The position numbers and the translations under genes are program-made. A stretch of 64,000 nucleotides of DNA from Mytilus trossulus (Eukaryota), in the NCBI RefSeq assembly GCF_036588685.1, contig NC_086380.1, positions 33,594,313 through 33,658,312 of the forward strand, in the 5' to 3' direction. Below the pieces are notes generated by a model. It did not search any database and had not been told where the DNA came from. It saw only the letters and a program-made list of their open reading frames with translations. Position 1 is the first letter of the stretch. Each line of letters starts with the position of its first letter. Below, piece after piece: positions 16,839 to 56,703 of this stretch.

Positions 16839-16978
16839 ATGTCTGCACCAAGGAGATCAGCCGATGAGCCTATCTACAGAATACCACCATATTATTATTT
16901 ACATGTATTGGACCAAAATCTAAACATCACAAGACTAGAGATTGGTCCACAGACCTTCATTAGACAAGACAATGAAAG
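16839..16978 (+). CDS. MVP: MVP-A exon 1 ([46 protein letters not shown], phase-2 end)
   Basis: ATG at 16839, donor gtaagg at 16979. Confidence 0.8.
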
Positions 16979-17363
16979 GTAAGGACTTTTTCTATAGAGT
17001 GCTTCCACTTAACAAAAGGACCACCTACATATCTTGGACATATGTTTGATCAGAACCTTGAAAAAACAGAACTAGAAAAATTCCATAGACCTTTCTTTTT
17101 AATGTAAGGCCATGAAAGACAATTTTGTGTAATCACTACTAACTACTTCATTATATACAATGAACAATTATTCTTGATATTATTCTGCAATTTTTATTCA
17201 CAAAAAGAAGGAATTGTTTTTAATTAATGAAAATTATATTAATTTTTAAGTTTTTTTTCTTTTTACCTGTTTAAATTATTATTCTTACATTTCTCTAAGC
17301 TATTACTGTAATCCAAAGGGAAAAGCTAATGTATCATATACATGTGCATTTTTTTACTTACAG

Positions 17364-17559
17364 AGTTGTATATGGACCTGAGCGTATGATCACTGTCCCC
17401 CCAAGGCATTATTGTATTATTGAAAACCCAGTACTGAAAGACAAAGAATGTAAAGTTGTTTTTGACGAAAGTGGACAGGCCAAACTTGTACATGCTGACC
17501 AGGAGATTAGATTGGCACAGGATCCTTTCCCACTGTACCCCGGGGAAATACTGAAACAG
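17364..17559 (+). CDS. MVP: MVP-A exon 2 ((R)[65 protein letters not shown])
   Basis: Acceptor tttttacttacag, donor gtatga. ORF-track frame 17329-17565. Confidence 0.9.
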
Positions 17560-18462
17560 GTATGATGTACCATTATGCTACACTTTGTTTTCATGTACAA
17601 TGTATTACTGTATGGCAATTATGTTGGCAGGGTGTGAATTTTTGCTTATTTTAGTGGATAGAACAAAATTGCCAAAATAAATTCCTCCTATATAAAAGTT
17701 ATCATGCAAAGGTATTGATAAAATGGTTGAATCCACCATAACAATAACCACCAAAGTATTTCGTATACCTTATTCAATGAAAATCGCAAAATTTACTTCG
17801 CTATACAGTATATTGTAACTTTACTGGTATAATTATTGTCAACTTCATGGAGAGGAAGTTTCATATTGAGGACAAAAGGATCTGTTTTGCTATCTAGCGA
17901 ATCAGTTGCTACTTTCATCGCTGGCATAATTGCTCAATTGCAAGGGATTTTGTAAGCATTTATCTGCTAGTCAGATGATAACATCTGCTTTTGAAATATT
18001 AACAGATACAATTTGAATAAGATCTGAGGAAATTGACTTTTTGAATTTAAGAGTCATGCTTTTGTTATTAATGCATTATAAAATATGTCAGGATGTTGAA
18101 AGCAACTTTTGTAAAATTAAAATTGAAAAGGAAGTAATCATGTTTACAAGGTAAAATGAAGGTCTTGTTTCTATATAGTACAGGTAACATTTAAAATTTG
18201 TTATTAAATCAACATTGATCAGTAGAGTGACAAGGAAGTAAGATGTCTTAGATGTTTAAGTTGATAGCACACACCTTTAAATGTCGTTCACCAAATTAAA
18301 ATGACATGATGTTCAATAGTTAAACTACTATTTTCAAGGTTAACAATATTATGTATGATTTAAATCTTCTTTCATTTTTTGATATTCATAATATTAGGGC
18401 TAGGTTATTATGATGCGAAAAGTGTTAGCAGCAAATTTTATTATCTCCCTTATTGTTTATAG

Positions 18463-18813
18463 GTTGTAACTCCCTTGAAAGTGGTAGCTGCCAACTCAGC
18501 TCTTCGGCTCAGAGCTATTTTAGACTTTGAAGATGACGATGAGGAAAAGAGAACAGCTGGGGATGAGTGGCTATTTGAAGGACCAGGAACATATATCCCC
18601 AGGAAAGAGGTTGTTATTGAGGAGACTGTCAGGGCCACAGTCATTAGACCTAATCAGGCCATTAGACTGAGGGCCAGGAAGGAGACTATTGACAGACAAG
18701 GTGTTGCTAGGGTAACTGGTGAGGAATGGCTGGTGAAGAAGACCGGAGCTTACCTCCCAGGAGCTTATGAAGAAGTTGTGGATGTTGTCAACGCCTATGT
18801 TCTAACAGATAAG
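18463..18813 (+). CDS. MVP: MVP-A exon 3 ([49 protein letters not shown]…NAYVLTDK)
   Basis: Acceptor tttatag, donor gtaaag. ORF-track 18475-18828. Confidence 0.9.
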
Positions 18814-19163
18814 GTAAAGAGGCTGTAGAGGGTACATAAAATGTCTTTTTGTGGAAACATGAAAGTAAAAAATTCAAATTTACAGTGAAATTATATAAGC
18901 ACATTATTGTACCAGCACAAAATTTAGGTAGATTTTAATTTAGAAAAAAATAGATGGCATTTGATGTTTGTTTAGGCAAGACCCTACAATACCTTATAAA
19001 AGGTTACTATCTATAATACATGTTATTGAGAGGAGAAAAACCTATAGAATAAAGAGTAAATCATACCAAAAATATACAGTACTCCTTTAATTGATGATTC
19101 TAAATATGTTTGGAGGAAATATGTATATTAAAGTTATTAAATATTTTCTTTCACATCTTGCAG

Positions 19164-19289
19164 AAAGCCCTTCATATGAGGTCATTGAGAACATTTAAAG
19201 ATGACTTTGGTGTAACAAGAAAGAACGGAGAGGAATGGTTGATCAAAATGACAGACACAGAAACACACATACCTAATGTGTATGAAGAG
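19164..19289 (+). CDS. MVP: MVP-A exon 4 (KALHMRSLRTFKDDFGVTRKNGEEWLIKMTDTETHIPNVYEE)
   Basis: Acceptor tcttgcag, donor gtatgt. Confidence 0.9.
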
Positions 19290-19749
19290 GTATGTATCAT
19301 GTGTATTGCACTGGTGTAAAATAACACATAATAAGGTAGTCATATGTTCTTTGTATCAATTCAATATTAACTTACTGTACATGTCCATACAAGTAAATGT
19401 AATGTTTTCAATATCTTTAAACCAGCTGGTTAACTGGAACCATTTATACTTTTGCGTAACAAAATGATGGGGAAAAGTGTCAAACTTACGCAAAGCTTTA
19501 TAGAAAATGTAATTATAAATTGTACAAAATTGTCTGAAAAGGACTAATCCTTAAAAACTATCTCTGAAAAAAATTAATTGGTTTCCTTGTTTTAATCTCC
19601 AGAACCTCAGTTGATTGCACAGGGATCATTTTCTATAACCATAATTGATAAATGATTTACCTTAATTTTACATAAGGAACATTTATTTATGGAATGATAT
19701 CAATGTCTAGCTTCTGACTTTAATGGACATGACTTTATTTTTTCATCAG

Positions 19750-19860
19750 GTTGTTGGAGTAGTGAATATTACCACATTAACCAGCAGACAATACTGTATC
19801 ATCCTTGACCCTTCAGATGAGCATGGCAGACCACAACTTGGTAGAAAGAAGTTAGTTAAG
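19750..19860 (+). CDS. MVP: MVP-A exon 5 ([37 protein letters not shown])
   Basis: Acceptor ttttcatcag, donor gtatgg. Confidence 0.85.
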
Positions 19861-20171
19861 GTATGGTGAAAATTTGTTTCATGAGAAATAACCCCTTCAT
19901 TCTATTATCATGATTATAAAACAATATCAATTACTACTTTTACTTTACTTTAGGAACTGTGAAAATAATACAAACTTAGTGTGTACTGCAAAATACAATG
20001 CATTTAAAATTCTTCTTTTGGTTGGAATTTGATGTTTCTTATAATTTATTGATATAAAAAAGTTTTAATAACAGAAAATTCATTATTTTTTATCAAGGGT
20101 CACAGCTTCTCTTTATGGTGCAGAGAGAAACATTTGATTACAGTACTCATAATTTCAATTTTTTTTTATAG

Positions 20172-20297
20172 GGTGAGTGTTCATTCTTTTTGTTACCTGG
20201 AGAACGATTTGAGAGAGGAATCCAGAATGTCTACGTTCTGGGAGAAGATGAAGGTGTTATACTGAGAGCTACAGAATCATTTAAAGATACTGATGCT
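20172..20297 (+). CDS. MVP: MVP-A exon 6 ([42 protein letters not shown])
   Basis: Acceptor tttttttatag, donor gtaagt. Confidence 0.85.
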
Positions 20298-22899
20298 GTA
20301 AGTTTCACACATATTTAATAAAACCAAATATCTGGAAAGTCATAAATTGATATTGGTGTGTTGGGAGTGTAGGCCTCCTAGGTAGCTGGCACATATCTGA
20401 CATAGATTACAGCTGTTTCTGCTTAACTAACAGGGTATAAGTCATCTGTATATGATACAGTTTCACTCATAGATGAACGAGTGGTGGTATTAGGTCATTG
20501 AACTAACGTCATTAAAATGGAAATTTCTTAAATAGCATCCCCATGATGACTATGAAAAATCATAAGAACAACTAAAAAAATCAGAAAAGAGACTGAATTT
20601 CTTGGATACTTCCCCTTTACGAACATGTATCATGATGTTGACCATTTCTATATTTCTTGCATGCCTTCTTTGCATATTGTTGAACAAAAGTTGATGAATT
20701 TGACACAACTTTGAAATAATGAACCTTCTGTCATGATACAAATGTGGTAGGAGTGAATCTTTTGAAGAAATCTTATTTTATATATCAATGAAGTGAATCT
20801 GGTTATTTTGCAACCAAAAAATAGCATTGCTTTGAAAAGAAGACAATTAGATAAACTAACCTTTGTATAAAGGATAAACTTTGCCTTGAATAAGTGGTAC
20901 ATGTACTTTGAATACTGTACACTATAGAGTGACCACATATATTTCAAAGTTATGTCAAATGATTAGTTTGTTTTGTTGTAAAACATTTATTTACTCCGCA
21001 TGTTAATATTTTGTTGTATAACATTCATTTACTCTACTTGATAATGCTGTCTCCCTCTCTGTGCTCAATTCGCCATTTCAGAATCTAAGGGACTCTGGGT
21101 AATTTAATTGTTCATACATCTGAATAAAGTTTACATTACACAATTAGGTTGGATATTTTGGTGATTACCAAATAGGATGTTTTGTCATAAATTTGAAAAA
21201 AGAACATTACCCAGAATACATGACTGGTAGATTCTGAAATGGTAAATTGTAAAACAAGTTTGATCCTGAAAATTGTTACTAGAGTAGGTGAATTTAACTT
21301 TTTTGTTTATTTCAGACTGATGAAAAAGTAAGTCAACAAGTGCTTTTAGTGCTTTCAGTGCTTTGATCTAACTGTTATTCTTGTTATAAACATTTGCTAT
21401 AAGTAATGACCTGCTTCAGAATAGGAAGGGCCGCCTACAATTGTCTTGTGTTTTCAATGTGTGTGTGTCCTTTCTACCTGTTTTGCTAATGCGTTTTGTC
21501 CAGTGTTTTTTCTTATCAATATTATAGGAAGTCTTGAAATTGAATCATTCATTTTATTCAAAACAAGATTAATTGAATTACACAATATTGTGATAAGTTA
21601 ATTTCATAGATTTCCTGAAATAAAGTGTAATTCACCTGTTATTTTATTATTGCATTGGAAAGTGCTAGAATTATTTTGCATGTAATAAATATTAACTAAA
21701 GATTTCTTATAATTTGTGCTTCAATAACATAAGTATGTTTTATATTAGGTGCATATTTCAACCTCAATTCCATTGGGAGACTCCTATACTGTTTATACAA
21801 AAGTAAGTCACAGTGACTTAGCTTCGTAAATAGATATTTAAAAATTCAATGTTGTTTGAATATATTTGTTATATAATCTTTTGTTCAAGTTTTCAAAAGA
21901 AATTTTTAAAATCAAAGCATTTGAATAAGTTATTTTCAAAAACAATTCTTGAAACATAATAAATATTAATAAGCTTTATTCTCAAGAACCCATTCTTGGT
22001 ACAAAACAAATCAGCTATTTTCATGCTGTCATCTAATATTCATATCTGTTTAGCCTTTTATTGTCCCCAATATCAATGTAATACTTGCCACTGGACATAA
22101 AAAATTGATTCATTATTATTTGTTGGATTCCAATTTTCATGGGTTTTGTGAGTACAGGTGAACTATGATTCAAATGTTCAACACATTACAAATTTTCTAA
22201 TGGCTTCAAAAGCACAGATTGGCAATACCAAGAAATAAAATATCCACTTAAATGCAAATTATCCTGCATCAACCAAAATGCCTCAGATTGATTTAATTTG
22301 AGATGCACATTCTTGATATTTTCAAAGCTTTTTATTACTATTAAATCAGTTTGCTTGGTATTTATGCCATATCTGCTTGAACATAATAGTATATTCATTT
22401 TTTTTACATTTTCAAGACTTACATGACTAACACTGTTTGAGATTTCTATTCATTCAAATTTCAAAACACATTTCATCAAACTCCTTTACTTATAGAGACC
22501 TGTTTTCTGTGTTCATACTAAATCTGGCTTTAAAGTTCAATTTAATATAGCCTTCATGTAGCTTCACAGGGGTTCTATCTCTGAGCAATAAAATATTTTT
22601 CATGAAGTACAAGTTCAGTCCTTTGACAAAGTTTTTCTTAGTGCATTTAGCATGCTTATTGACTTAAGTTTTCACCTACAAGTTTTTCATTTCAACTTTA
22701 TACTTATATGGCTGCTTTTTAATGTAGAACTGTTGGTATTTTTATAAATACTATCAGTTTAAGTCTTCAGAAGTCATTTCTTTTCATACTAGCACATGAA
22801 AGGATCTATAGTCAAAACAAGATTTACAAAATCAAGATTCTGTTGGGAAAGATTTTTTATGACAACAAAGTTATTTATTATCAAACTTTTTTATTTAAG

Positions 22900-23049
22900 G
22901 ATGTTGAAAGGAAACCAGGAGATAAATGGATGATCAGGGGACCAGCAGAATATGTACCACCTGTAGAGGTCGAGGTCATCATGAAGAGAACTGCAATCCC
23001 ATTGGACGAAAATGAGGGTATCTATGTCAGAGATATTAAAACTGGAAAG
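22900..23049 (+). CDS. MVP: MVP-A exon 7 ([50 protein letters not shown])
   Basis: Acceptor ttatttaag, donor gttggt. The phase-0 junction is the same as in paralog B. Confidence 0.8.
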
Positions 23050-23494
23050 GTTGGTGTTACACATATATATATATACTAACATTAAAACTAGATATCACAA
23101 TAACAATTTTTTTTTTTTTTTAAATTCAAAAGTAAGATAACAATCTTTTTTAAATGGAATATTTGGCAAAATGAAGTTATTTTTTGAAGTGAGGATTTTT
23201 TCATGAATTTTGTTAAACAAAAAACAATCTATTTTGTATATAACCGAACAATTCTGAGAATTTTGTGTATGTTAGGAAACACCGGGGATCTCTATTTTGA
23301 CCAAAAAAAATAAATTATAAATGACGATTTGATGTATTGTTATGTTTTCAAAATACACTGGGTACTGTATATCATTATTGAGAGAACACACTTATAACCA
23401 TTTACATAGTAACATCTCCCGTCATCCATCAACGTTTGATATTGTCTTTTCACTAGTGAAGTTTTGACTAAGATTAACATTATACATATTATAG

Positions 23495-23733
23495 GTCAGA
23501 GCTGTAACTGGAGAAACCTATATGTTAAACCAAGATGAGGAATTATGGGCCAAGGAACTTCCTCCTGCAGTCGAGACCCTTCTTGCCCAAGGAAAGGACC
23601 CTATGGCTGACAGGAGTGACCGGTCCAAATCAAGCGATTCATCAAAACCAAGGGACAAGACTCGTGTTGTCACATTCAGAGTGCCACACAATGCTGCAGT
23701 ACAGATTTATGATTATAAAGAAAAGAAAGCCAG
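23495..23733 (+). CDS. MVP: MVP-A exon 8 ([24 protein letters not shown]…[29 protein letters not shown](R))
   Basis: Acceptor attatag, donor gtaaat, phase 2. Confidence 0.9.
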
Positions 23734-24376
23734 GTAAATAGTGCTTCATACTCAGTGTATACATTCCCTTATCCAACAGGCCATGAGCAGAATTAGGCCA
23801 GTCATTTAATTCATTACAATACATGAATATTGATTGAGTAGAAGGTACACATTGTATACCAACTTCTTTCAGGGCTTCAGTGGCTTAGTTGTCTAAGAGG
23901 TTCATATACAATCATCACAATCTTTCAATTTGAGGTTGCAATTTCATACTCAACGTGTTCTAACAAGTATGTTAGACGTCAATCTTAATCGACAAAAAAT
24001 GCCAGTTTTCCTGCTGAATATCAATGGTTTCTTTCATGATACTCTGGTTTCTTCCATCAACAAAAATTCTTTACTTAAGTCATTGTTAAGTGTTGATTAA
24101 CTTGGACATTTGAATCAGTATGATAAAAATAAATAGTTACTTAGTTGTGGAAATTCTCTTTATTTAGAGTTTTACATCTGTTATTTAAAGAATGAATAAT
24201 GTATGTTCATTGAAGATTATCAAAAGGAAGAACTCGTGTATGTCTATTGAAACTGTGTGAACAAATGATTATCATTGTTGAAACAGATTGTTATGCCCCT
24301 CTAGTGATTTTATTAAAAATTATCAAAACCCTTGGAATAAACAAATAATAGCCATGTAATTTTCTTTCTATTCTAG

Positions 24377-24719
24377 AGTTGTGTTTGGTCCAGAATTAGT
24401 TATGTTGGGTCCAGATGAACAATTCACACAGCTTAGTCTCTCTGGAGGTAAACCAAAGAAACAAAACGTTATCAAATCATTGTGTTTACTTCTGGGACCT
24501 GATTTCTGTACTGACATTATCACCGTAGAAACAGCCGATCACGCCAGGTTGTCACTTCAGTTATCATACAACTGGCACTTTGATATTAAAAATAAAGAAG
24601 ATAAGGCTGAGGCATCTAAGATTTTCAGTGTACCAGATTTTGTTGGGGATGCCTGCAAGGCCATTGCCTCCAGGATCAGAGGGGCCGTGGCACAAGTACA
24701 GTTTGATGATTTCCATAAG
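24377..24719 (+). CDS. MVP: MVP-A exon 9 ((R)[68 protein letters not shown]…QFDDFHK)
   Basis: Acceptor ttctag, donor gtatgc. Confidence 0.9.
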
Positions 24720-25500
24720 GTATGCTTAATGAACAAGTAGACCTGCATAGACACAGACATTACCACTGAAATATTTTTATAGGTCAAATTCATAAAATAA
24801 TTGTTTTACCTGTTGATTCAATATTCATAAATATTACGCATATAAAAATGAGTGTGGTATGATTGGCAATTAGAGTTCTCTTCACAACAGAGACAAAGTG
24901 GCATAGAATTTAACCTTGCATTTTAGTTTTATGAACAAATAGACATGAGCTAAAAATTGTCTTTCAAAATTATACTAAAGAATTATTTCCAAACTTTTCT
25001 CAAAATCCAGGGGTGGTGCTATAAACTCAAGACAATAAGAGAACCTCTCTTGAATATCCTTTGGTGTTCCCTGAGGCATATTGATATATACGGAAACTTT
25101 ATGTTTTTATTACTGCATAATATAACTTTTTCTCCTCAGGGCAAGGAGGGGCGTAAATAGGGGGAATCTGCACGGAAGAACACAAAATAAAATTGCCATT
25201 TCATGATGAACGAAAACTTAAAAGTTTCCTGCACGTTGATCTTTTTTACCGATTTCATGAAACACAGTGAATAACGAACTTTTTTCACGGCTGCACATGA
25301 AATAAAAATGGTAAAACACTTGGCATAAAAATAACCCTTTACCACCCTCGCAAAGGAGTGAATCAATCCTATCAAATAAAAAAAAATATATTATGCCATA
25401 CAAAAAAAATATACGATCACAAATAATCAGTACAGACTGAAAATTATCTACTGTGTACAGAAAAATTCAGAATTAAGAAATTTGCACATTTATGTTACAG

Positions 25501-25712
25501 AATTCTGCTAGAATCATCAGATCTTCTGTGTTTGGATTTGATGACAAAGACAAAGTGCGTGAAGTTTTCAAATTCCCCCAAAACAATTTGGTTTTCACCA
25601 GTATTGATATCCAGTCTGTAGAACCTGTAGATCAGAGAACAAGAGATGCTTTACAGAAATCTGTACAACTGGCCATTGAAATCACAACAAACTCACAGGA
25701 AGCTGCTGCAAG
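25501..25712 (+). CDS. MVP: MVP-A exon 10 ([70 protein letters not shown](R))
   Basis: Acceptor tatgttacag, donor gtagat, phase 2. Confidence 0.85.
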
Positions 25713-26370
25713 GTAGATAACTCTTCAGAAACTTATACTGGTATATTAAAAACACCAAATTATTGTACAGGAGACTACTGCAAAGTAGTCATTAAAACAC
25801 AGTTCAATTCAAGATGACTGTAGAATATTTATAAAATTGGAGATGTGGTATGATTGCCAATGAGACAACTCTCCACCAGAGACCAAACTACATAATAGTT
25901 AACAAATTAAGGTCACTGTATGGCCTTCAACAATGAGCAAAACCCATACTGCATAGTAAGCTATAAAGTGAATTCTAAGTCTGAGTACGTAAATCATACT
26001 CTAAATTTTTATAACCGCCTGGCCTGACAGTTGACTATAAGCTAGTGAGCTTATACAGATATTAGCTTACCATGTTCTAGAAAAATGCAATATATATTTT
26101 ATATCACAGCAATGTATATTTCCCCAAATTATGTTTGAAAATTTTCTGCTAAATGTTTAAATTTTCTTTATTCAAAACATGATACATGAATAGTGGCAAA
26201 AAGTTGGTTGCTTAATTTGTTTTGACTTACATATCATAATAAATAGAATGGGTCCTCATATGCAACTATTCCAGTCATAATTAGGTTCGATAACTCTGTA
26301 TGTGACTGGTTTAATTAGGATTATGTAAAATGTACTGGTTACCCGTGTAATGATTTCAAAAAAATATATA

Positions 26371-26431
26371 TATAATTTTTATACGACCGCAAATTTTGAA
26401 AAAATTTTCGTCGTATATTGCTATCACGTTG

Positions 26432-26484
<53 letters not shown>

Positions 26485-28250: not shown

Positions 28251-29562
28251 TCTTTGTTACCATCCATCCGTGGTTTCCTTTTGTTAATATAAAATATTAT
28301 AATAAAATGATTCCATAAACAATCGTATAATACTAATATATGTATTAGGTCTTGTCAAAACTTCATCGTGATTAGGCCACGTTGCCATGTTTGTTTTCTT
28401 TGATCACGTTGATGACTTAATTAATATCTCCACAATCTAGCTTTATCCTTGATTATCATACGAGTTACAATAACGTGTCATATTTAATTGCAATACAAAC
28501 AGTTAAATCTTATTGAATTATTTGCATGTGCAAAATAAGTGTCGAACATCGTCTACGTTTGAAAATTATTTGGTCGCCATTTTGTTATATGTAACTTCGA
28601 AATTTTATCAAAACAAATAGCATGTATCCACTTTAACAGAGGGAAATAATGTTTAATTCTATGCTGCATTAAGGTAAGACAATTATTGAAAAGACATGAA
28701 TCTAACAATTTTTCGATTTTCATCGTACAAATCTTTAAAAATATATATTCCCATGTCGCCCCAAGCTAACAATGTACATGCAAACTGCATGGTCGGTGCA
28801 TGTAAATCTTTATTTTTAGTGTGAGAGACTGTTTCTAATAAATATATTGAAGAACATGTGAAAATAGAAATTTCTTAAGTACAAAAAGACACACTTTGAT
28901 AAATGTCTTAAATATTACTTTTTACATTTATAACTAAATTAATACCGGCATGTCATGTCGTTCTGAACCTTCAACAGTGGCCGCCATTTTGAAAATATTG
29001 CTGAAGACTGCCAAAATATGAACTTTTCAACCAAATTTCGAAGCAAAAAGTTTAATACCTGAACTGATATGGTTTGCGATTTCATTTAAAGGAATATGTT
29101 GTCGATCTTTTTAGGGGTTGGAAGGATATAAGTTACAATAAATTAGTTGAGAAAATTGATTTTACAAAAAGGTCCCATTGCAATTTTATCGAGTTTTAAC
29201 GAAGATGTCAACGAAGGCTGTGTGGCTATGTCACCTCAATTTTCAAACTTATTTCGAAGCACGAAATCATATTTCTGAACTAAAACTTAAAACATATTTA
29301 ATTGTAAAAACTTATTAACTGTAAAACGCGGGGTTGGGAGGGAAAATATACATTATAACAAAAAAGTTATGACCGTTTTATCTATGTACCCCGTTCACTT
29401 TCATTGATAATCAATCGGCCATTAATGATATACAACTTAAGTGTAAAAGTCACGTGATGAGGGAGATAGTTGGATATGTGAACCCTATTGTTGGGAACCT
29501 GTACATGATTTGGTTGTTCAGAAACAAAAGAATTATATTCTTTTCATGCTTAGGCCTTTTTT

Positions 29563-30440: not shown

Positions 30441-30513
30441 CTTAGAAGCAATATGCAGAACATAAATTAATGAATATAAATGGAGAATTTTATCAATCTA
30501 TATTTTTTTTCAG

Positions 30514-38548: not shown

Positions 38549-38650
38549 GTGACATGATTTGGTGTCACGATATCTCAGTAACATGGGTTCGAATCCCGGC
38601 GAGGGAAGAACAAAAAATTTGCGAAAGCAAATTTACAGATCTAACATTGT
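38549..38650 (+). mobile_element. tRNA-derived SINE-like unit, copy 3. It is 5'-truncated and in the opposite orientation to copies 1 and 2.
   Basis: …ggtgtcacgatatctcagtaacatgggttcgaatcccggcgagggaagaacaaaaaatttgcgaaagcaaatttacagatctaacattgttgggttgatgtttagacgagttgta. Confidence 0.5.
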
Positions 38651-45826: not shown

Positions 45827-45858
<32 letters not shown>

Positions 45859-45905
45859 CAACGTGATAGCAATATACGACGAAATTTTTTTCAAAATTTG
45901 CGGTC
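43921..45905 (-). mobile_element. Composite TIR-bounded satellite-bearing element, copy 3, inside the last intron (intron 11) of MVP-B
   Basis: The same termini are present (43921 …ccgcagggcgtagctttatacgaccgcagagg; 45880-45905 …caaaatttgcggtcgtataaaaag). (GAC)n at 45828-45858. Confidence 0.65.
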
Positions 45906-47363
45906 GTATAAAAAGTGTTTATTCATTAAATGTATTGATACAAAGGTGAGCTTCTTCTTACACATGCATTTAGTCATCCTTAATTTCTTGATATTTTGTT
46001 TATCAGTTTATCATACACGTTTAGTTTTGTATTTCATTTTAAATACGAATACATATACCACATATACTTTAGCGGATAGTTCAACAATGTTATGCAGCTC
46101 TATTCTTACAGTATAAAAATGAAAGATAAATGTTCATCCATTTAAAATCGAAAACAGTACATTAATATTTAAAAAAAGAAGATGTGGTATGATTGCCAAT
46201 AATACAACTCTCCATGAGAGACCAAAATGACACAGAAATTAACAACTATATGTCACCGTACGGCTTTCAATAATTTGCAAATCCCATACCGCATAGTCAG
46301 CTATAAAAGGCCCCGAATTCGAACAAGAATTGTTCCTTATAAACTACGCTTTCTAACAAGTATTAATTTATTATTTAGTTCCACACATGCAAAAGAAATA
46401 ATCTTCGCCGATGTAATATTTCAATTTATTATGACAACCTGCCTTCACTGAATTCATTCAGGTGCACCAATGATACGATTACAGTTATTTTGTTTCTATC
46501 TTTGAGGGACAATTTCCTCCGTCTATGATACGCTTATAGCTACATTTTTGTACTGTGTGTATGTTTTATAGCATGAAAATAATAAAAGAGGAATGTCAGT
46601 GCAACCCCTCAGTAACTATTGTAATGGATCAGTATTATGAGATACTTATTATAAGTGACTATGACATTGTTACTAGTGATTCATATATTCATCTAACCCG
46701 AATAATTCAGTCGTTATATTCCGCTGATCTACGAAGTGTGGGAGAAAATCGGACACGGAAAGGGCTTGAATTATTCGAGTTAATATTCATCCGTATAAAA
46801 GCGGCACATTGTATTTTATTTATCCTTATAATTCTCATCATGCCGGGTTCAAGATAATCGAGTTGCTGCATTCATAAAGAACTTAGAATTTTACTTAAAA
46901 CAAAATATCAGTATAATATTTCGACCCCACTATTTGAAGTTAACAAAACATCTATTTAATTCTTTTGACCAAAGGTTTGTAAACTATACAAATCATTGTT
47001 TTTACGTTCGTAGTAACATAGTAAATTCCATTGTCGGTCACCTGTGTCAATTCACGTGCACACTGACTACATTGTTGTTGTATTTAAATCTTTCGGCCAA
47101 TGAAATGAGACGTAACAAGTTGTTTGTTTATGATACGCCAGAATGTTATCAATGAACTATCAAATGCTAAACTTGACTGCATTTTAGTATAAACTCGACT
47201 GTAAACTGAAATGATTCCAGTTTAAGTTTTTTGTGTATGCTATTCTTCACAACTTCATCAAACACAAACAATGAAGCTGTCAAATCTGACTGATTTAGCA
47301 TGTGACCTATTAACCACTTGCCATCAAATTCCAGTTAAAATATACATAAACCATGCTACTTAC

Positions 47364-47607
47364 TGATTCAATTTTCATTGCCTGTGATTTCAGTTTGGCC
47401 TGGTCTACAGCTGCCTCACCCTCAATCCTAGAAGCTTCAGCTCGGGACTGTGCCTCTGCTTTAGCCTGACCAGTACTTTCTACTGCAGCACTGTTTGCCT
47501 GTAATTCCAACAACTGTCTCCTGGATTTTTCGGCTTCTGCTTCATCTGAAATCTTCTGTCTCTCTAATCTTCCTTTAGCTTCCTGTTCTAATCTCTCTGC
47601 TTCATGT
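47364..47607 (-). CDS. MVP: MVP-B exon 11 ((R)[81 protein letters not shown])
   Basis: ORF-track 47310-47513. Acceptor aaatcttag, donor gtaagt. Confidence 0.85.
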
Positions 47608-48455
47608 CTAAGATTTAAAAAGCAAACTTAGAGTAATAGTTATTAATTAAATCTTCATCAAATAACATAATGCAAAAGTATGAATTAAAAGTGTATCCAT
47701 CAGTCTTAACAGACAGAGGTCATGATAAAAAAATGCTCTTTCTGTCTAAGAGTTTCCACATAAAACTATTCTCGTATAAGTTCATTTGGTTATGTAATAT
47801 ACATATAACGTTTCGCATCAAATTTGACATAATCATTTGAAGGCATTCAGACACATAATAGTTCATGCTTCAACTATACTTGATCAGTATAAACACGAAT
47901 GGGTATAATATTCATTCTTTTGGTATAAACTTAACATTAATTAAAATCAGATCTTCAACATTAAACGTTTACAGATAAGTTTACTCAGAAAATATTGTTT
48001 CTATGGATATTGTTTTTCCAAATTTGCACGCTCTGTAAACAGTTTATTCCGACTTCTGACAATTATGATCTGGACCATATATTGTTGGTTCAGAGCCATT
48101 TATACCCAATATGTCTATGTGTCACTAACCATGTTGGTACGAGTATACATTTTGTAGTACAGTCCACAACGGTTAAACAATATTACTTCTGAAGATCAAT
48201 TAGATTTAGCAGGCATGCAACATCAGAGAAATACATTCATTAACACATGCATGATGTACTTCTAATCAATTTCGAGGCAACAGTAGTTTACTAGACCTAG
48301 AAAATGTCTAGGATTGTATCGATCGAATATGGTTCAGCTTCAGTTTGTCGTGACTAATTACCAAAGTTGACAAACTAACCTACATTTCAGCGGCTTCCCG
48401 TGAGTAAAATGTGCATTCAAAGGCTAGCTTTACATATTTCTATTGAGTTACTCAC

Positions 48456-48667
48456 CTTGCAGTAGCTTCCTGTGAGTTTGTTGTGATTTCAATGGCCAGT
48501 TGTACAGATTTCTGTAAGGAATCTCTTGTTCTCTGATCTACAGGTTCAACAGATTGGATATCAATACTGGTGAATACCAAGTTGTTCTGTGGGAATCTAA
48601 AAGCTCCTCGAACTTTTCCTTTCTCATCAAAACCAAATACTGAAGATCTAATGATTCTTGCAGAATT
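48456..48667 (-). CDS. MVP: MVP-B exon 10 ([70 protein letters not shown](R))
   Basis: Acceptor tgttttag, donor gtgagt. Confidence 0.85.
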
Positions 48668-48985
48668 CTAAAACAAAAGAATGTATTTCTTTTTAGATAA
48701 CATTTGATTTTAAAGGCTCTTACGTTTTTTATGATGAAGGTTAATCAAGATAAATGGGGAATGTGTCCATAGGGACACATATGATGCCCCCGCTACCATG
48801 TAACGTTATAAAGGGACATTACTCAAAAAGGCGGGGCATAAAAAGCGCTTCGGACACACCAAATTTGATAAAGTCTTACACTCATCGTGCATTTAGGAAA
48901 ATGTTTCAGGTTTAGTATGCCCTCACTCGAATCTAATACCGTATTCCTAAAACCAGACCATTTGCTGTATAAAGATAATGCTTAC

Positions 48986-49328
48986 CTTATGGAAGTCATC
49001 AAACTGTACTTGTGCTACGGCCCCTCTGACTCTGGAAGCTATAGCCTTGCAGGCATCTCCAATGAAATCTGGTACACTGAAAATCTTAGCAGCCTCTACT
49101 TTATCCTCTTTACTTTCAATTTCAAAGTGCCAGTTGTACGACAGCTGTAATGACAGTCTTGCATGGTCAGATGTTTCTACAGTAATGATGTCAGTACTGA
49201 AGTCCGGTCCCAGAAACAGACATAAAGATTTAATGACATTGTTTTTCTTTGGTTTGCCACCAGAAAGGCTAAGCTTCGTGAATTGTTCATCAGGACCTAA
49301 TAAAACCAACTCGGGACCAAAAACAACC
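48986..49328 (-). CDS. MVP: MVP-B exon 9 ((R)[68 protein letters not shown]…QFDDFHK)
   Basis: ORF-track 48947-49309. Acceptor cttaacag, donor gtaagc. Confidence 0.9.
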
Positions 49329-49566
49329 CTGTTAAGAAAAGCAAAAATAAAGATAAACTTAAAATTTTATCACATGATTTACATATCAGGATCTTGTTAA
49401 GACATTGAATTGCTCAAATAAACAGACTTCTACTAATCAAATCCCTTTCACGAATTGAAGTTAGGTACAAGAACAGTATTATGATGACATTATCAATTCT
49501 AAACATAAAATTTAATGCTTACATTGAATCTTACTAAAAGTATCAATAACAATTTTATAAATATAC

Positions 49567-49808
49567 CTTGCTTTCTTTTCTTTATAATCGTAAATCTGTA
49601 CAGCAGCATTGTGTGGAACTCGGAAAGTGATCACACGTGTTTTATCACGTGGTTTAGGAGCCTCACTTCCTTGTTTTGGTCCTCTCTCACCAAAGGCCTG
49701 TGGGTTTTTAGCCTCAGCCAGGAGAGTCTCGACTGAGGGAGAAAGTTCTTTAGCCCATAGTTCCTCATCCTGATTCAACATGTAGGTCTCTCCAGTAACA
49801 GCTCTGAC
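49567..49808 (-). CDS. MVP: MVP-B exon 8 ([80 protein letters not shown](R))
   Basis: ORF-track 49512-49781. Acceptor cattttag. Confidence 0.9.
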
Positions 49809-50060
49809 CTAAAATGTGTATTAATATTTGATATCACAAGGTAACAAATATATATGCTCGATTCACAATTCTATTCAGTTATATTCTTATAGACCACCGA
49901 AAATTACATTCGATGTCTTAAATGATTTTGCTTTTACCCATAGATGTTTGATAGAACTTCATTACATAATATGATATAAAAAAGAAGATGTGGTATGATT
50001 GCCAATGAGACAACTATCCACAAAAGACCAAAATGACACAAACATTAACAACTATGAGGG

Positions 50061-50260
50061 GGCTGATGGGTTAATTTCGTTCTTCGTGATCGAGGATGTT
50101 TTCATTTCGTGATCCGTGAAAGATGCCAATTTTTATCGTGATCTGTGATTTTGAGGAAATTAATTTGTGATTTGGTAATGTTAATTTTTTGTGAATCGTG
50201 ATTGATATTTTTTGTTTTCCGTGATCCGTGATGAGGACCCCCCATTAGGCCCCTCAACTA
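50061..50260. mobile_element. MITE with TIR GAGGGGGCTGATGGG / CCCATTAGGCCCCTC and internal CGTGATC repeats, in MVP-B intron 7
   Basis: Terminal inverted repeat readable. ~200 bp. Same GAGGGGG…CCCCCTC end style as the element at 2521-2721. Confidence 0.5.
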
Positions 50261-50346
50261 TAGGTCACCTATCAACTGACTGACATCTTTCAGAAAAATA
50301 CACATGTATATGATTATTTGTGGAACATAGAAACTGTATGACATAC

Positions 50347-50496
50347 CTTTCCAGTTTTAATACATCTGACATAGATACCCTCATTCTCGTCAAGTGGCAG
50401 TGCAGTTCTTTTCATGGTCACCTCAACCTCCACTGGTGGAACGTATTCTGCTGGTCCCCGAATCATCCATTTATCTCCTGGTTTTCGTTCTACCTT
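50347..50496 (-). CDS. MVP: MVP-B exon 7 ([50 protein letters not shown])
   Basis: ORF-track 50314-50565. Acceptor tatttccag, donor gtatgt. Confidence 0.85.
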
Positions 50497-50940
50497 CTGG
50501 AAATAAAAGAAAATGTCAATAGAAATATTATCGTGTAATACAAAGTAAACGTCGAAAGATATCAATTATAATTTGGATTTTATACCAAAGACACCTACAA
50601 CAAGAAATAATTGTCAAACTATTCGAGCTAATGTTGCATTTACACATTCCTCATCAATAAAAGTATTCACAGAATAACTACTGGCATGGGAATAAAAGAA
50701 GCGAAGCCACATAAGCAATGGCTTTTGAAATGTTTGGACAGATACACTAGCATCTAGGCATACTTCACATGATTGCATTTTGGCGAGAAATTCTTTCTCA
50801 CAAGCTTGGGTCCTTTTTTCTGTTAACTTGTACTTATTTTGTTTAAATGTTTTGGTATAATAACAGACAGCCAATCATAAAACGAAATTACGAACAAATG
50901 ATCGCAATACTTAAAAGTGTTCAGATTTGAACATACGTAC

Positions 50941-51066
50941 AGCATCTTTATCAATGAATGATTCTGTAGCTCTCAGGATAACACCTTCATCTTCTCCAAG
51001 TACGTATACATTCTGGATTCCACTCTCAAATCGTTCTCCAGGCAGCAAAAAGAAGGAACACTCACC
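50941..51066 (-). CDS. MVP: MVP-B exon 6 ([42 protein letters not shown])
   Basis: Acceptor tgttttag, donor gtacgt. Confidence 0.85.
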
Positions 51067-51659
51067 CTAAAACATACAATATAAATATGAGAAAAACTAT
51101 ATACTCGGGAAATTAAGAAAGACGCGCCTGATGGAAACTTTAAAGTTAAATTAAAGATCAACTTTCAGCTGTCAATGAGTTCTCTTCACATTGAGAAAAA
51201 AAGAACGTTTTCCGTAAAATACACAATGTAAAGATGCTGATACGAATGCAAACTTGTTTATTGGCCGTTTCAGAATCTAAAGAACTATGGGTAATTTCAT
51301 TGTTCGTACCCTGAAATGAAAATACTGTCACGTCATTGGTTGAATTTCCATTGTTTATGAAATTTTTAATCAATCACGACGTTTTGGTGTAAATTTTTGA
51401 AAATATTATCCAGGATGCATTAGATTCTGAAACGGCGAATTGACAATTACTCTTCCGGAGTTTGTGAAATAGGAAATACATCTAACACAAGATGTTTTCG
51501 CCACGGTTAAAACTACCTTTGCTTACACAAACCCGTTTCAAATTGTCAACTTAGCAATATAATTATACTATATATCATGCAACAGCTTAACGACATGCAT
51601 TGATGAACCTTAGTTATACAGTAAATTAGCTCTGCTAAGTCTACTAACATTTTATTTAC

Positions 51660-51770
51660 CTTAACTAACTTCTTTCTACCAAGCTGTAGTCTGCCATGTT
51701 CATCGGAAGGGTCAAGGATGATACAATATTGTCTCGTGGTAAGTGTGGTGATATTGACGACTCCAACAAC
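51660..51770 (-). CDS. MVP: MVP-B exon 5 ([37 protein letters not shown])
   Basis: Acceptor gatttcag, donor gtaaat. Confidence 0.85.
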
Positions 51771-52409
51771 CTGAAATCAATATTAAAGTATATAACAAAC
51801 AAGGTATTGATGGTTTATTAGAATACTATGAAACTATTCTTCAGGCGTCACATCATTTCTTTTCAGTAGGCGTTTAGTTTCAGTTTTCCAAATACATTGG
51901 CATTACTTAAGCATTGGTGCACTACTTAGTATGAAGACTCAGGGTTTACCTGTTTTGGGCATAACTTTCTTGATGTATTACACGGGAAACCCAATATGGA
52001 AAAAGACTTGCTCGATTTTTCTGTCTAATACACTGTATTGAGTTGTACTCAAAGCATTCAAATTTTCAAATAATCTGAACTGTATTTGACTCAATCGGTA
52101 CTATTCCTGAACAGTACTTAAACGAGTCTGAGCTGTACTCAGACTGAATATATCATATTCGTAAAATGAAACTCAGAAGAGTGCCTGAGTCTGAACTGCA
52201 TCGAGTCGGAATCAAATTTTGACAAGCGTTTTGTTGTATGAAAGTGGATAAGAAAAGAAGGAAGGGATGGATCTCCCAAAAGAAAAAAACAACCAAAGAG
52301 AAGATGTGTTCCCCAGAAACGTTTTTCTTTTAATCATAAAGGGAAAATTATAAGTGTTCATTCCATATTCCATTCCCTGTTAAACCACTTATGTAACATC
52401 AGTACATAC

Positions 52410-52535
52410 CTCTTCATACACATTAGGTATGTGTGTTTCTGTGTCTGTCATTTTGATCAACCATTCCTCTCCGTTCTTTCTGGTTACACCAAAATCATCT
52501 TTAAATGTTCTCAATGATATCATATGAAGGGCTTT
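52410..52535 (-). CDS. MVP: MVP-B exon 4 (KALHMISLRTFKDDFGVTRKNGEEWLIKMTDTETHIPNVYEE)
   Basis: Acceptor tcttgcag, donor gtatgt. Confidence 0.85.
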
Positions 52536-52900
52536 CTGCAAGATAACAACATACATGTTCATGCTGTCTAATACGTTGTACGTTATTTAAAATGTGATTT
52601 ATTATGGAAAAAATCACTTTAAGGACTAGTAAACTGTTTAATTCAATAAATCTGCATGTTCGTTTTTACAATTATAGTATTTATGCATGTGTATTTAACG
52701 TCTTTATGATACTGTAGTAGCTGATTTGTTTTTTCTTTCACAAATTACCATGCAAAGTATGTTTTAAAAATTCAAGAGTTCAAACTATCACATCCACAAT
52801 CAAAACCCTGAAACATGTACTGACAGATCAAAGATCTATTTTGAACCCGTATTTCACCCTATTAAATCATATCATATCAACTGAATGAAATTATATTTAC

Positions 52901-53251
52901 CTTATCTGTTAGAACATAGGCGTTGACAACATCTACAACTTCTTCATAGGCTCCTGGGAGGTAAGCTCCGGTCTTCTTCACCAGCCATTCCTCGCCAGTT
53001 ACCCTAGCAACACCTTGTCTGTCAATGGTCTCCTTCCTGGCCCTCAATCTTATGGCCTGGTTAGGTCTAATGACTGTGGCCCTGACAGTCTCCTCAACAA
53101 CAACCTCCTTCCTTGGGATATATGTTCCTGGTCCTTCAAAAAGCCACTCATCCCCAGCTGTTCTCTTTTCCTCATCATCATCTTCAAAGTCTAGAATAGA
53201 TCTCAGACGAAGAGCTGAGTTAGCTGCAACCACTTTCAGGGCGGTTACAAC
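52901..53251 (-). CDS. MVP: MVP-B exon 3 ([49 protein letters not shown]…NAYVLTDK)
   Basis: ORF-track 52877-53233. Acceptor gtttatag, donor gtaaat. Confidence 0.9.
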
Positions 53252-53269
53252 CTATAAACAAAGGAGAAA

Positions 53270-55610
53270 ATCTAGTCTGCTGCTACCAATTTCAAAGATT
53301 GCAACCTTTAAACCAAAAGGGTGAAAATCAATTAAAATCTACCATTTTCAACGGTGGTACACCTTTAATCAACAAGCGAGAGAATTAAATCAGCTGCTAC
53401 CACTTTCATGGGGAGGGGGGTTACAACTAATAAATAACAAGGGAGATAGCCAAATCAGCTGCTACTACCTTTATAGGGTAAAACTAATTAACAACAAGGG
53501 AGGAAATCAAATCAGCTGCTACCACTGTGAGAGGAGGGTTACAACCAATACAGAACACTTGAAATGAGAAAATCAATTCAGCAGCTGCCACTTTTAGGGG
53601 AGCTACAACCAACAAACAACAAGGGAGATAACCAAATCAGCTGCTACCATAGGCAGGGGTGGGTTACAACCAATACACAACGCTAGAAAGGAGATAACTA
53701 ACCAGCTGCTACTACAGTCAGGGGAGGGTTACAACCAACAAACAAGGGAGATAACCAAATCAGCTGCTACTACAGTCGGGGTAGGGTTACAACCAACAAA
53801 CAAGGGAGATAACCAAATCAGCTGCTACTACAGTCAGGGGAGGGTTACAACCAACAAACAAGGGAGATAACCAAATCAGCTGTTACTACAGTCGGGGGAG
53901 GGTTACAACCAACAAACAAGGGAGATAACCAAATCAGCTGTTACTACAGTCAGGAGAGAGTTACACCCAACAAACAAGGGAGATAACCAAACCAGCTGCT
54001 ACTACTGTCAGGGGAGAGTTACAACCAACAAACAAGGGAGATAACCAAATCAGCTGCTACTACAGTCAGGGGTGAGTTACAACCACCAAACAAGGTAGAT
54101 AACCAAACCAGCTGCTACTTCAGTCGGGGGAGAGTTACAACCAACAAACAAGGGAGATAACCAAACCAGCTGCTACTACTGTCGGGGGAGAGTTACAACC
54201 AACAAACAAGGGAGATAACCAAATCAGCTGCTACTACAGTCGGGGGAGGGTTACAACCAACAAACAAGGAAGATAACCAAACCAGCTGCTACTACAGTCA
54301 GGGGTGAGTTACAACCACCAAACAAGGTAGATAACCAAACCAGCTGCTACTTCAGTCGGGGGAGAGTTACAACCAACAAACAAGGGAGATAACCAAACCA
54401 GCTGCTACTACTGTCGGGGGAGAGTTACAACCAACAAACAAGGGAGATAACCAAATCAGCTGCTACTACAGTCGGGGGAGGGTTACAACCAACAAACAAG
54501 GAAGATAACCAAACCAGCTGCTACTACAGTCAGGGGTGAGTTACAACCAACAAACAAGGGAGATAACCAAAGCAGCTGCTACTACTGTCGGGGGGAGAGT
54601 TACAACCAACAAACAAGGGAGATAACCAAATCAGCTGTTACTACAGTCAGGGGAGAGTTACAACCAACAAACAAGGGAGATAACCAAATCAGCTGCTACT
54701 ACAGTCAGGGGAGGGTTACAACCAACAAACAAGGGAGATAACTAAACCAGCTGCTACTACAGTCAGGGGTGAGTTACAACCAACAAACAAGGAAGATAAC
54801 CAAACCAGCTGCTACTACTGTCAGGGGAGAGTTACAACCAACAAACAAGGGAGATAACCAAAACAGCTGCTACTACAGTCGGGGTAGGGTTACAACCAAC
54901 AAACAAGGGAGATAACCAAATCAGCTGCTACTACTGTCAGGGGTGAGTTACAACCAACAAACAAGGGAGATAACCAAATCAGCTGCTACTACAGTCAGGG
55001 GTGAGTTACAACCAACAAACAAGGGAGATAACCAAACCAGCTGCTACTACAGTCGGGGGAGAGTTACAACCAACAAACAAGGGAAATAACCAAATCATCT
55101 GCTACTACTGTCGGGGGAGGGTTACAACCAACAAACAAGGGAGATAACCAAATCAGCTGCTACTACAGTCAGGGGAGAGTTACAACCAACAAACAAGTGA
55201 GACAACCAAATCAGCTGCTACTACTGTCAGGGGAGGGTTACAACCAACAAACAAGGCTGAAAACCAAATCAGCTGATACTACTGTCAGTGGAGGGTTACA
55301 ACCAACAAACAAGGCTGAAAACCAAATCAGCTGCTACTACTGTCAGGGGAGGGTTACAACCAACAAACAAGGCTGAAAACCAAATCAGCTGATACTACTG
55401 TCAGGGGAGGGTTACAACCAACAAACAAGGCTGAAAACCAAATCAGCTGATACTACTGTCAGGGGGTGGGGTGACAAACAAAAAAACAACACTTGAAACG
55501 AGATAATCAAATCAGCTGCTGCCACTTTTATGGGAGCTACAAACTTCAAACAACGATGGAGGAAATCAAATCAGCTTCTGCCACTTAAAACGAATATACC
55601 AGCCGTGGAG
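53270..55610. repeat. Satellite array of ~58-bp monomers (caaatcagctgctactacagtcaggggagggttacaaccaacaaacaagggagataac), ~38 copies filling MVP-B intron 2. Homogenised core at 53700-55450, degenerate edges.
   Basis: Direct reading of the tandem periodicity. Monomer variants GGGGAGGG, GGGGTGAG and GGGGAGAG alternate. Edge units become progressively divergent towards exon 3'. Confidence 0.9.
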
Positions 55611-55946
55611 GTGGTATCATTGAAAGTCAATCAGAGATCAATGTAACAAATGTTTTCCTTTACTTCATTATGTTTTATTGCAAATATTACTATTATAACA
55701 CGCAACCGATGAGCTGTAACACTTAAGGTAATAATGCATATAAACTTCTTAACCCTGATCACTTATATATTACTGGGTTTACTGGTTAGATGCTCACGAT
55801 TACTATTGGGGGAAACCGTGCCCAAAAGCTTAAATTAAAACAACTCATCTATTTTCGACAAGTAATAATACATTTTATTTATTGTAACCACTAAGTGCAG
55901 TTAATTGCTATATCAAAACTTGGACCTGTAACCACGAACATCATAC

Positions 55947-56142
55947 CTGTTTCAGTATTTCCCCGGGGTACAGTGGGAAAGGATCCTGTGCCAATCTAAT
56001 TTCATGGTCAGCATGTACAAGTTTGGCCTGTCCACTTTCGTCAAAGACAACTTTACATTCTTTGTCTTTCAGTACCGGGTTTTCTACGATACAATAATGC
56101 CTTGGGGGTACTGTGATCATACGCTCTGGTCCATATACAACT
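55947..56142 (-). CDS. MVP: MVP-B exon 2 ((K)[65 protein letters not shown])
   Basis: ORF-track 55941-56162. Acceptor ttaacatttacag. Confidence 0.9.
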
Positions 56143-56566
56143 CTGTAAATGTTAATACGCAAAATTTGTATCCAGCTAGCAAAATTTGTATCCAGCTAAT
56201 TACGGTATACATAGACTTTTAAAAAATTATAACCTGATTAATATTGAGTTGAACTTGGTCTGGCCTATCTGACAAATGAAATGCAAGAAAATCTTGTCAA
56301 TCCAAAACCTTGTTACTAGTATTAGATTAAGTTGTTAATTCTATGATACAAAATAAAAAAAAAATAGTTTCATATAACATTGGGTAATTTTTCCTTCAAG
56401 TGAACTTTCTCCTTTTGGTGCAAAAAAATATCCATGAAACTCTTTTTCTTTTAAAGGTCGTTCTTCCGATAGAATAAAAACACTAGTGTGAGGGGGGATA
56501 TCCACTATGACAATTAGCTGAGCAGACATTCTACTCACGAAATAAATATGCTATAGTTATACTTAC

Positions 56567-56703
56567 TTTTCATTGTCTTGTCTGACAAATGTCTGTGGAC
56601 CAATCTCAAGTCTTGTTACATTGAGGTTCTGGTCTAGAACATGGAGGTAAAAATAAGGAGGGATTCTGTATATTGATTCGTCTCCCCGTCTTGATGTCGA
56701 CAT
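56567..56703 (-). CDS. MVP: MVP-B exon 1 ([45 protein letters not shown], phase 2)
   Basis: ATG (cat on the + strand) at 56701-56703. Donor gtaagt is the reverse complement of acttac at 56561-56566. Confidence 0.8.

Follow-up and report, generated by a model that had tools for sequence, protein, structure and literature searches.

A window of 64,000 nucleotides from contig NC_086380.1 of the mussel Mytilus trossulus (positions 33,594,313 to 33,658,312 of the forward strand) carries two complete genes for the major vault protein (MVP), here called copy A and copy B, whose 3' ends face each other. The locus is very probably a conserved tail-to-tail pair of functional MVP paralogues, an old duplicate in which exon sequence has been exchanged by gene conversion. 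"The window" denotes this whole stretch, with position 1 as its first letter; it is AT-rich (about 32% G+C) and contains no Ns. The copy A protein is 100% identical to the M. trossulus entries XP_063396183-6 ("major vault protein-like"), and the copy B protein exactly matches XP_063396189/91 of the same species. Both genes are thus already annotated as RefSeq models, and the gain offered here is one of interpretation and not of discovery. Literature searches turned up no account of two MVP genes in Mytilus; this is an ordinary lineage-specific MVP duplication, previously undescribed there, of genes that are already annotated.

Comparison of positions 16000-33000 with the reverse complement of 41500-57500 yields twelve collinear blocks of 76-97% identity, with unrelated sequence between them. 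Exon models were built by translating these blocks in three frames and then placing the splice sites (Table 1). All introns of the two genes (22/22) are GT-AG, the phase after every exon is the same in A and B, and the reconstructed coding sequences of A and B contain no internal stops or frameshifts. A preliminary description of the window had proposed two full-length MVP genes (858 and 859 aa), tail to tail, with 12 exons and the same intron phases, and the rebuilt models agree with it to the base; its statement that both copies are intact is likewise borne out by exact models that lack any disabling lesion. Introns 1 to 11 measure 385, 903, 350, 460, 311, 2602, 445, 643, 781, 4801 and 893 nt in copy A, and 424, 2695, 365, 639, 593, 444, 538, 238, 318, 848 and 4494 nt in copy B. 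The size contrasts described earlier for introns 2, 6 and 10 all match these lengths, and a further one, at intron 11 (0.9 kb in A vs 4.5 kb in B), had escaped that description. The roughly 10.5 kb of repeat-dense DNA said to lie between the 3' ends measures 10,538 bp, and its repeats have been mapped.

Membership in the MVP family is clear for both proteins. Each has the Pfam families Vault (4 stretches), Vault_2, Vault_3, Vault_4 and MVP_shoulder in the same order, all above the curated cut-offs, with Vault E-values of 7e-72 for A and 1e-70 for B. In both copies residues 520-638 cover positions 1-118 of the 118-position MVP_shoulder profile (E = 1.5e-53 and 7.5e-53). Residues 8-841 of copy B are collinear with residues 4-850 of solved MVP chains (E = 0), a span that takes in the C-terminal cap-helix/cap-ring region, over which copies A and B are 91% identical. 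Copy A is 75-85% identical to the MVPs of molluscs, echinoderms and cephalochordates. Identity to solved MVP is high enough to leave the fold in no doubt. This degree of conservation suggests that the A and B proteins would assemble into vault particles of 78 subunits.

Over their whole length the two proteins agree at 779 of 857 positions (90.9%). Of the 2571 coding sites that align, 327 differ, or 12.7% (3-25% by exon), so that the 5-7% estimated by eye in the preliminary description was too low. The Nei-Gojobori method gives a synonymous divergence (dS) of 0.57, a nonsynonymous divergence (dN) of 0.051 and a dN/dS of 0.09. By exon, silent divergence between A and B (pS) forms a mosaic that runs from about 0.1 to 0.9: it is 0.10-0.22 in exons 2-4, 0.23 in exon 11, and 0.62-0.88 in exons 1, 8 and 9. 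Exons 2-4 and 11 are also the most conserved in protein, with a nonsynonymous proportion (pN) of 0.011-0.016 (0.016 in exon 11). Exon 12 is divided within itself, with 91/120 identical positions (76%) in its first 120 nt and 172/180 (95.6%) in nt 121-300, which upholds the near-identity noticed earlier in its 3' half. Introns of A and B could not be aligned with each other in M. trossulus, M. californianus or M. galloprovincialis, apart from shared repeats and the last 45 nt or so of intron 2. Self-comparison of the whole window found only dispersed repeats outside the coding exons, and the 5' flanks of A and B have no similarity to one another.

The pair is shared across the genus. A-type and B-type protein clusters each contain M. 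trossulus, M. edulis, M. galloprovincialis, M. californianus and M. coruscus, and the A-type and the B-type Mytilus proteins each form a clade with 100% bootstrap. All five species have the B-specific features, among them an N-terminal motif, a loop bearing AFGERGPK, and a C-terminus ending ...DDDDCYE. Synteny comparison, with the window itself as the M. trossulus locus, finds the convergent A/B layout in the assemblies of two related species. In M. californianus (JAKFGE010000008.1) copy A lies at 40,055,885-40,071,599 (+) and copy B at 40,090,184-40,098,396 (-), with a spacer of 18.6 kb; in M. galloprovincialis (UYJE01001268.1) copy B lies at 209,208-223,051 (+) and copy A at 231,828-246,183 (-), with a spacer of 8.8 kb. 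Annotated proteins mapped on these two loci reveal the same 12 exons in all four genes, with small length differences in exons 1, 8 and 12. Synteny with the other species extends to the 5' flanks of both genes and to either end of the spacer; the spacer ends match the M. galloprovincialis spacer at 86-89% identity.

Gene conversion between the copies had been hinted at in the preliminary description on account of exon 12. The hint is supported, and more widely than proposed, by evidence from one sequence in each of three species. Silent differences in A-B pairs are distributed heterogeneously across exons (chi-square 51-67, p <= 3.5e-7), whereas those between A orthologues are homogeneous (p = 0.98 and 0.79). 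A runs statistic agrees: silent differences are clustered in the paralogues (p < 0.001) and not in the A orthologues (p = 0.6). Since the orthologues are uniform in silent rate, exons 2-4 and 11 share a more recent A-B ancestor than the rest of the gene. A quartet analysis of informative positions among A and B of M. trossulus and M. californianus counted 177 sites that follow orthology, 23 "concerted" sites that unite A with B within a species, and 8 of the third arrangement. Exons 2-3 hold 11 concerted vs 7 orthology sites, and the remaining exons 12 vs 170 (Fisher p = 7e-8). Between M. trossulus and M. galloprovincialis concerted sites are nearly absent (6 vs 226), which places the last exchanges before the radiation of the edulis complex, around or after the M. 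californianus split. The same pattern can be read in the exon 2 protein, where A and B both have LKDKEC in the edulis complex and both have LRDKE[A/S] in M. californianus and M. coruscus. The clearest tract pairs A 17438-17533 with B 56068-55973, identical at 93 of 96 nt. As the introns between homogenised exons are unrelated, the conversion tracts must have been short and exon-confined; such tracts would be expected where only exons keep enough identity to pair. Mosaic and phylogenetic signal are directly visible, and gene conversion is the mechanism that they suggest for exons 2-4, exon 11 and the 3' part of exon 12.

The duplication itself is evidently older than these exchanges. Taken over the full coding sequence, A and B differ by a pS of 0.40 in all three species, against an orthologue pS of 0.25 for M. 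trossulus vs M. californianus and 0.14 for M. trossulus vs M. galloprovincialis. An outgroup transcript (P0002) has 93% protein identity to copy A, with a pS of 0.60. In exons 1, 7, 8 and 9 pS is 0.59-0.65 between A and B, 0.59-0.61 between A and P0002, and 0.66-0.69 between B and P0002. Orthologous introns align over most of their length, at 77-95% for M. trossulus vs M. galloprovincialis and 67-81% vs M. californianus. A more distant witness is a 2.5-kb genomic contig (L012; Logan SRR26215655, 1-2493), which came from members of copy B's own protein cluster and carries exons 8-11 of a B-type MVP gene with short introns. At diagnostic residues it has 11 B-states vs 3 A-states, it bears the AFGERGPK motif, and it groups with Mytilus B at 99% bootstrap; its silent sites are saturated relative to Mytilus (pS 0.7-0.84). 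A B-type gene so distant at silent sites implies a duplication that predates both the Mytilus radiation and the split from the L012 relative. This contig is the only sign of the B type beyond the five Mytilus species: in a collection of 5.8 billion proteins there is no separate cluster of B-type proteins outside Mytilus, and every non-Mytilus match is closer to A. We infer an old duplication, before the radiation of Mytilus and before its split from at least one more distant relative.

Since that duplication the copies have evolved unequally. With P0002 as outgroup, 15 amino-acid changes are unique to A and 55 to B (relative-rate test p = 1.7e-6). Orthologue pN/pS is 0.006/0.25 (about 0.02) for A and 0.014/0.24 (about 0.06) for B. 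Copy B evolves faster than A, its protein rate being roughly 2.5 to 4 times that of A, but it does so under purifying selection, and it is copy A that keeps the ancestral sequence. In all three species 57 A-B differences are fixed. On the domain limits of rat MVP, which fit those that Pfam gives for repeat 9 and the shoulder, they fall in repeat 1 (9), repeat 8 (14), the shoulder (12), the cap helix (5) and the C-terminal region including the tail (5), and repeats 3-5 together hold 1. Most of those in repeat 8 lie in the loop of residues 432-448, in which B carries another sequence in place of the widely conserved DPxADRSDRS. Intact reading frames, splice sites in three species and low dN/dS argue that both copies are functional and that neither is a pseudogene.

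Mussel genomes are highly heterozygous and prone to uncollapsed haplotigs, and an exon structure exactly common to A and B would also be seen if the copies were alleles of one MVP gene, their haplotypes joined by the assembler as an inverted repeat. That origin is scarcely credible here. Coding divergence is 12.7% with a dS of 0.57; none of the 11 introns of A aligns with its counterpart in B, while across species the same introns do align; A and B form separate groups in five species; and the flanks of A differ from those of B, each being syntenic across species. Identical layout in the independent assemblies of two further species excludes a mis-joined haplotig, and the A/B pair in those assemblies together with the unalignable A-B introns rules out this candidate. 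A genuine but recent duplication is highly improbable as well. It would take the exons of low divergence (pS 0.1-0.25) as the true age, with the other exons and the introns unusually fast and no conversion, and it can point to the full-length protein tree, in which Mytilus A groups with B at 96% and P0002 falls outside, and to the want of a B-type protein cluster beyond Mytilus in the protein database. Yet no exon has an odd silent rate among orthologues (for A, p = 0.98 and 0.79), the introns align between orthologues at a pS of 0.25 while those beside paralogous exons at 0.1-0.2 do not, the sites that unite A with B within species cluster in exons 2-3, and A and B were already separate before the M. 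californianus split. The saturated silent sites of the B-type L012 gene speak against a recent event too.

Selection on synonymous sites, through splicing enhancers, mRNA structure or translation kinetics, might also have kept exons 2-4 and 11 alike, and extra constraint is plausible in exons that are the most conserved in protein. It is nevertheless very unlikely to be the explanation, for silent divergence between orthologues is the same there as elsewhere (A of M. trossulus vs M. californianus, pS 0.23-0.35; homogeneity p = 0.98), the within-species A-B pS of exon 2 (0.16-0.19) falls below that orthologue range, and A and B share the changes of state between species groups (LKDKEC vs LRDKE[A/S]). 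Equally unlikely is that copy B is a non-functional or decaying duplicate that is intact by chance. Its 55 unique changes against 15, the lost DPxADR loop motif, a truncated B annotation in one M. edulis assembly and the fact that B is known from genes alone could all be read in that way. The B gene, though, has an intact reading frame and canonical splice sites in M. trossulus, M. californianus and M. galloprovincialis, and is annotated at full length in M. edulis and M. coruscus as well; its orthologue pN/pS of about 0.06 is far below 1, the Pfam MVP domains score equally well in B and A, and a B-type gene has been kept in the much more distant L012 species.

Several points weigh against the preferred reading, that of an old and functional pair with exon conversion, and should be set beside it. 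The full-length tree, taken at face value, would favour a younger duplication; its A+B grouping is attributed here to the homogenised exons. In the oldest exons synonymous sites are near saturation, and the age of the duplication is a relative one, P0002 and L012 being known by sequence alone. The ends of the conversion tracts at exon borders are deduced from missing intron similarity. Expression of B, and of either copy in M. trossulus, is predicted from gene models only; RefSeq lists several accessions for each of the A and B proteins. In M. edulis assembly GCA_905397895.1, B is annotated as a protein of 367 aa that is out of frame in exon 6 (P0137, CAG2185676.1), while the RefSeq M. edulis B is full length; the truncation could be an assembly error or a segregating null allele.

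Much of the difference in intron size between the copies can be traced to repeats. The large size of B intron 2 is accounted for by a minisatellite whose 58-bp unit takes the 3' end of that intron together with the opening ~29 nt of exon 3, the acceptor AG being mutated in the upstream copies. Between 1 and 3 such units stand at the intron 2/exon 3 junction of A and B in three species, and the large expansion is found only in M. trossulus B; in M. californianus B intron 2 measures 626 nt, in M. galloprovincialis 938 nt. B intron 11, which is 375-385 nt in those two species, owes much of its extra size to one of three composite elements of about 2 kb with mutual identities of 88-92%. In the copy within A intron 10 a (CGT)17 microsatellite at 26433-26484 is followed by 161-bp repeats (x3-4), an arrangement repeated in the other two copies; tandem arrays of 135/261 bp and 35 bp complete the element. 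A microsatellite followed by a tandem array of ~160 bp is the architecture of bivalve Helentron-associated elements, including MgE of M. galloprovincialis (PMC7492417), and by array layout alone the composite elements resemble non-autonomous members of that group (HINE/Pearl/MgE). A partial copy of the composite element lies at 9145-10193. In the spacer, a 576-bp tandem has first and second copies that are 100% identical for 300 nt or more, which points either to duplication in the very recent past or to an artefact of assembly.

Copy A has a large intron 6 (2.6-4.7 kb) in each of the three species. In M. trossulus this intron contains a candidate 12-nt alternative microexon that would encode TDEK. 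The same 4-residue insert occurs in annotated A isoforms of other mussels, as PDEK in M. edulis and M. galloprovincialis and as TDEK in M. coruscus. Among the M. trossulus proteins listed no isoform has the insert, and copy B intron 6 contains no AG-N12-GT candidate.

Elsewhere in the window, Rfam at gathering thresholds and tRNA scans gave zero matches, so that neither a vault RNA nor any other known RNA gene was found beside the pair, and Pfam scans of six longer open reading frames in introns, spacer and flanks identified no family. One open frame of 293 aa (6708-7589, minus strand) is charged and coiled-coil-like, with Pfam matches that are marginal and unconvincing; the block around it matches M. 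edulis at 92.9% identity, and a 268-aa gene has been called at the corresponding site of that species. The 5' flank of copy A also holds a near-perfect palindrome (10468-10829), 362 nt long and matching its own reverse complement at 98.6%.

Table 1. Positions of the MVP gene pair, its exchanged and diverged segments, and associated repeats in the window
Feature	Position	Strand	Remarks
MVP copy A (start to stop codon)	16839-31989	+	12 exons, 2577 nt, 858 aa; Pfam and RefSeq match
Copy A exons	16839-16978, 17364-17559, 18463-18813, 19164-19289, 19750-19860, 20172-20297, 22900-23049, 23495-23733, 24377-24719, 25501-25712, 30514-30757, 31651-31989	+	
MVP copy B (start to stop codon)	56703-42528	-	12 exons, 2580 nt, 859 aa; Pfam and RefSeq match
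Copy B exons	56703-56567, 56142-55947, 53251-52901, 52535-52410, 51770-51660, 51066-50941, 50496-50347, 49808-49567, 49328-48986, 48667-48456, 47607-47364, 42869-42528	-	
Spacer between stop codons, with 3' flanks of both genes	31990-42527		10,538 bp, repeat-dense
Copy A exons 2-4, homogenised exons (span including introns)	17364-19289	+	A-B pS 0.10-0.22; introns 2 and 3 unalignable
Copy B exons 2-4, partner block (span including introns)	52410-56142	-	As for copy A exons 2-4
Low-divergence exon 11	A 30514-30757; B 47364-47607	A +; B -	A-B pS 0.23, pN 0.016
Near-identical 3' part of exon 12	A 31771-31950; B 42570-42749	A +; B -	172/180 nt; "concerted" and "other" quartet sites present
Ancestral repeat-8 loop, copy A codons 432-448	23588-23638	+	DPxADR common to three outgroup transcripts and other bivalves
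Rewritten repeat-8 loop, copy B codons 431-448	49662-49715	-	AFGERGPK in all Mytilus B proteins and L012
Candidate 12-nt alternative microexon, copy A intron 6	21316-21327	+	ACTGATGAAAAA, TDEK; polypyrimidine tract and CAG acceptor, GTAAGT donor
58-bp minisatellite, copy B intron 2	53436-55485	-	~35 copies; accounts for the intron's large size
Composite repeat element, copy 1, copy A intron 10	26368-28248	+	(CGT)17, 161-bp, 135/261-bp and 35-bp arrays
Composite repeat element, copy 2, spacer	38978-41325	-	2.3 kb; repeat mapping
Composite repeat element, copy 3, copy B intron 11	43911-45922	-	Much of that intron's extra size
576-bp tandem, spacer	36133-37585		2.5 copies; first two 100% identical over at least 300 nt
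~436-bp repeats, spacer	37668-38529		Repeat mapping

A history that would fit these observations begins with one ancestral MVP gene, duplicated in inverted orientation before the Mytilus radiation. The introns and flanks of A and B have since diverged beyond recognition, intron sizes being shifted by growth of the 58-bp minisatellite, by insertion of mobile elements, and by retention of a large intron 6 in A only. Both coding sequences were kept under strong purifying selection, the fixed changes of B gathering in the N-terminal repeat, the repeat-8 loop, the shoulder and the C-terminal tail. In the exons that are conserved best (2-4, 11 and 12, the last in its 3' part), short exon-confined tracts have probably made the copies alike again, and more than once. 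It is an established principle that inverted orientation lets two copies exchange sequence without deletion of either gene. Both proteins would be expected to build vault shells, and if vaults assemble on a single polyribosome, as a proposed model holds, A and B may form two separate vault populations that differ at the waist, the repeat-8 loop and the cap. A bolder proposal, which we regard as rather doubtful, is that mytilids have long maintained two vault shells, a canonical A with its optional microexon and an altered B, specialised for cargo, partners or tissues. Were that true, exon-limited conversion would act as a filter that preserves a shell core common to both types (repeats 2-5 and the cap helix), so that one can stand in for the other, and lets the regions that face partners drift apart, and the pair would amount to a natural dissection of the structural and functional parts of MVP.

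What vaults do has yet to be settled, and in most animals it can be studied through a single MVP gene only. Where an ancestral A stands beside an altered B, the parts of the protein that can vary become visible: both ends (N-terminus and C-terminal tail), the repeat-8 loop and some of the shoulder. Repeats 3-5 and the cap helix hardly differ between the paralogues. There is also a practical side. MVP is used as a marker of stress and xenobiotic resistance in mussel ecotoxicology and proteomics, and primers, antibodies or peptide identifications that assume one MVP gene may mix two, since the paralogues differ in predicted isoelectric point (pI) and in several peptides. In the gill proteome of M. 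edulis, four MVP spots with pI 5.48-5.61 were ascribed to phosphorylation (PMC5302490). Prediction puts the pI of A at 5.46-5.50 and that of B at 5.60-5.68, near the range of the spots in two-dimensional electrophoresis, and the paralogues are thus an alternative, if speculative, explanation of that spot train.

For genome biology the locus is a clean and unsurprising case of exon-confined concerted evolution between inverted duplicates. Exon-limited conversion between old paralogues has its textbook cases in the globin and RH genes, which the mussel pair resembles in its silent mosaic, in homogenised exons with unrelated introns, and in sites that unite paralogues within species; it differs in that the mussel events are inferred from three species with one sequence each. 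In its proteins the pair resembles the MVP of other metazoans (rat and human; PDB 4V60, 4HL8 and 7PKR), with about 860 aa, all five Pfam families in order, and B aligned to the solved chains. The difference is that the mussel has two genes in place of one, and that mussel B has an altered repeat-8 loop, N-terminus and C-terminal tail.

The preliminary description had called MVP single-copy in most metazoans. As a rule this stands, most eukaryotes having a single MVP with Dictyostelium as an exception, but there is a published animal exception in the salmon louse, which has three paralogues (PMC11219742). Like the mussel, the louse lineage has kept several full-length MVP paralogues. Its genes LsMVP1-3, however, have three exons each and are spread over two chromosomes, a recent duplication has left two of them nearly identical, and extracellular cement is one of their uses (PMC11219742), whereas the mussel genes are adjacent, inverted, divided into 12 exons, and old. 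The freshwater snail Physella acuta has two distinct "major vault protein-like" entries that are 78% (P0050) and 72% (P0145) identical to mussel B, which suggests further independent MVP duplications in molluscs. MVP duplicates have also been noted in kinetoplastids and Paramecium (PMC3762200). These, together with MvpA and MvpB of Dictyostelium (PMC11219742), share with the mussel the presence of more than one MVP gene per genome, but the protist paralogues are far more divergent: those of Paramecium are 42% identical (PMC3762200), as against 91% in the mussel pair.

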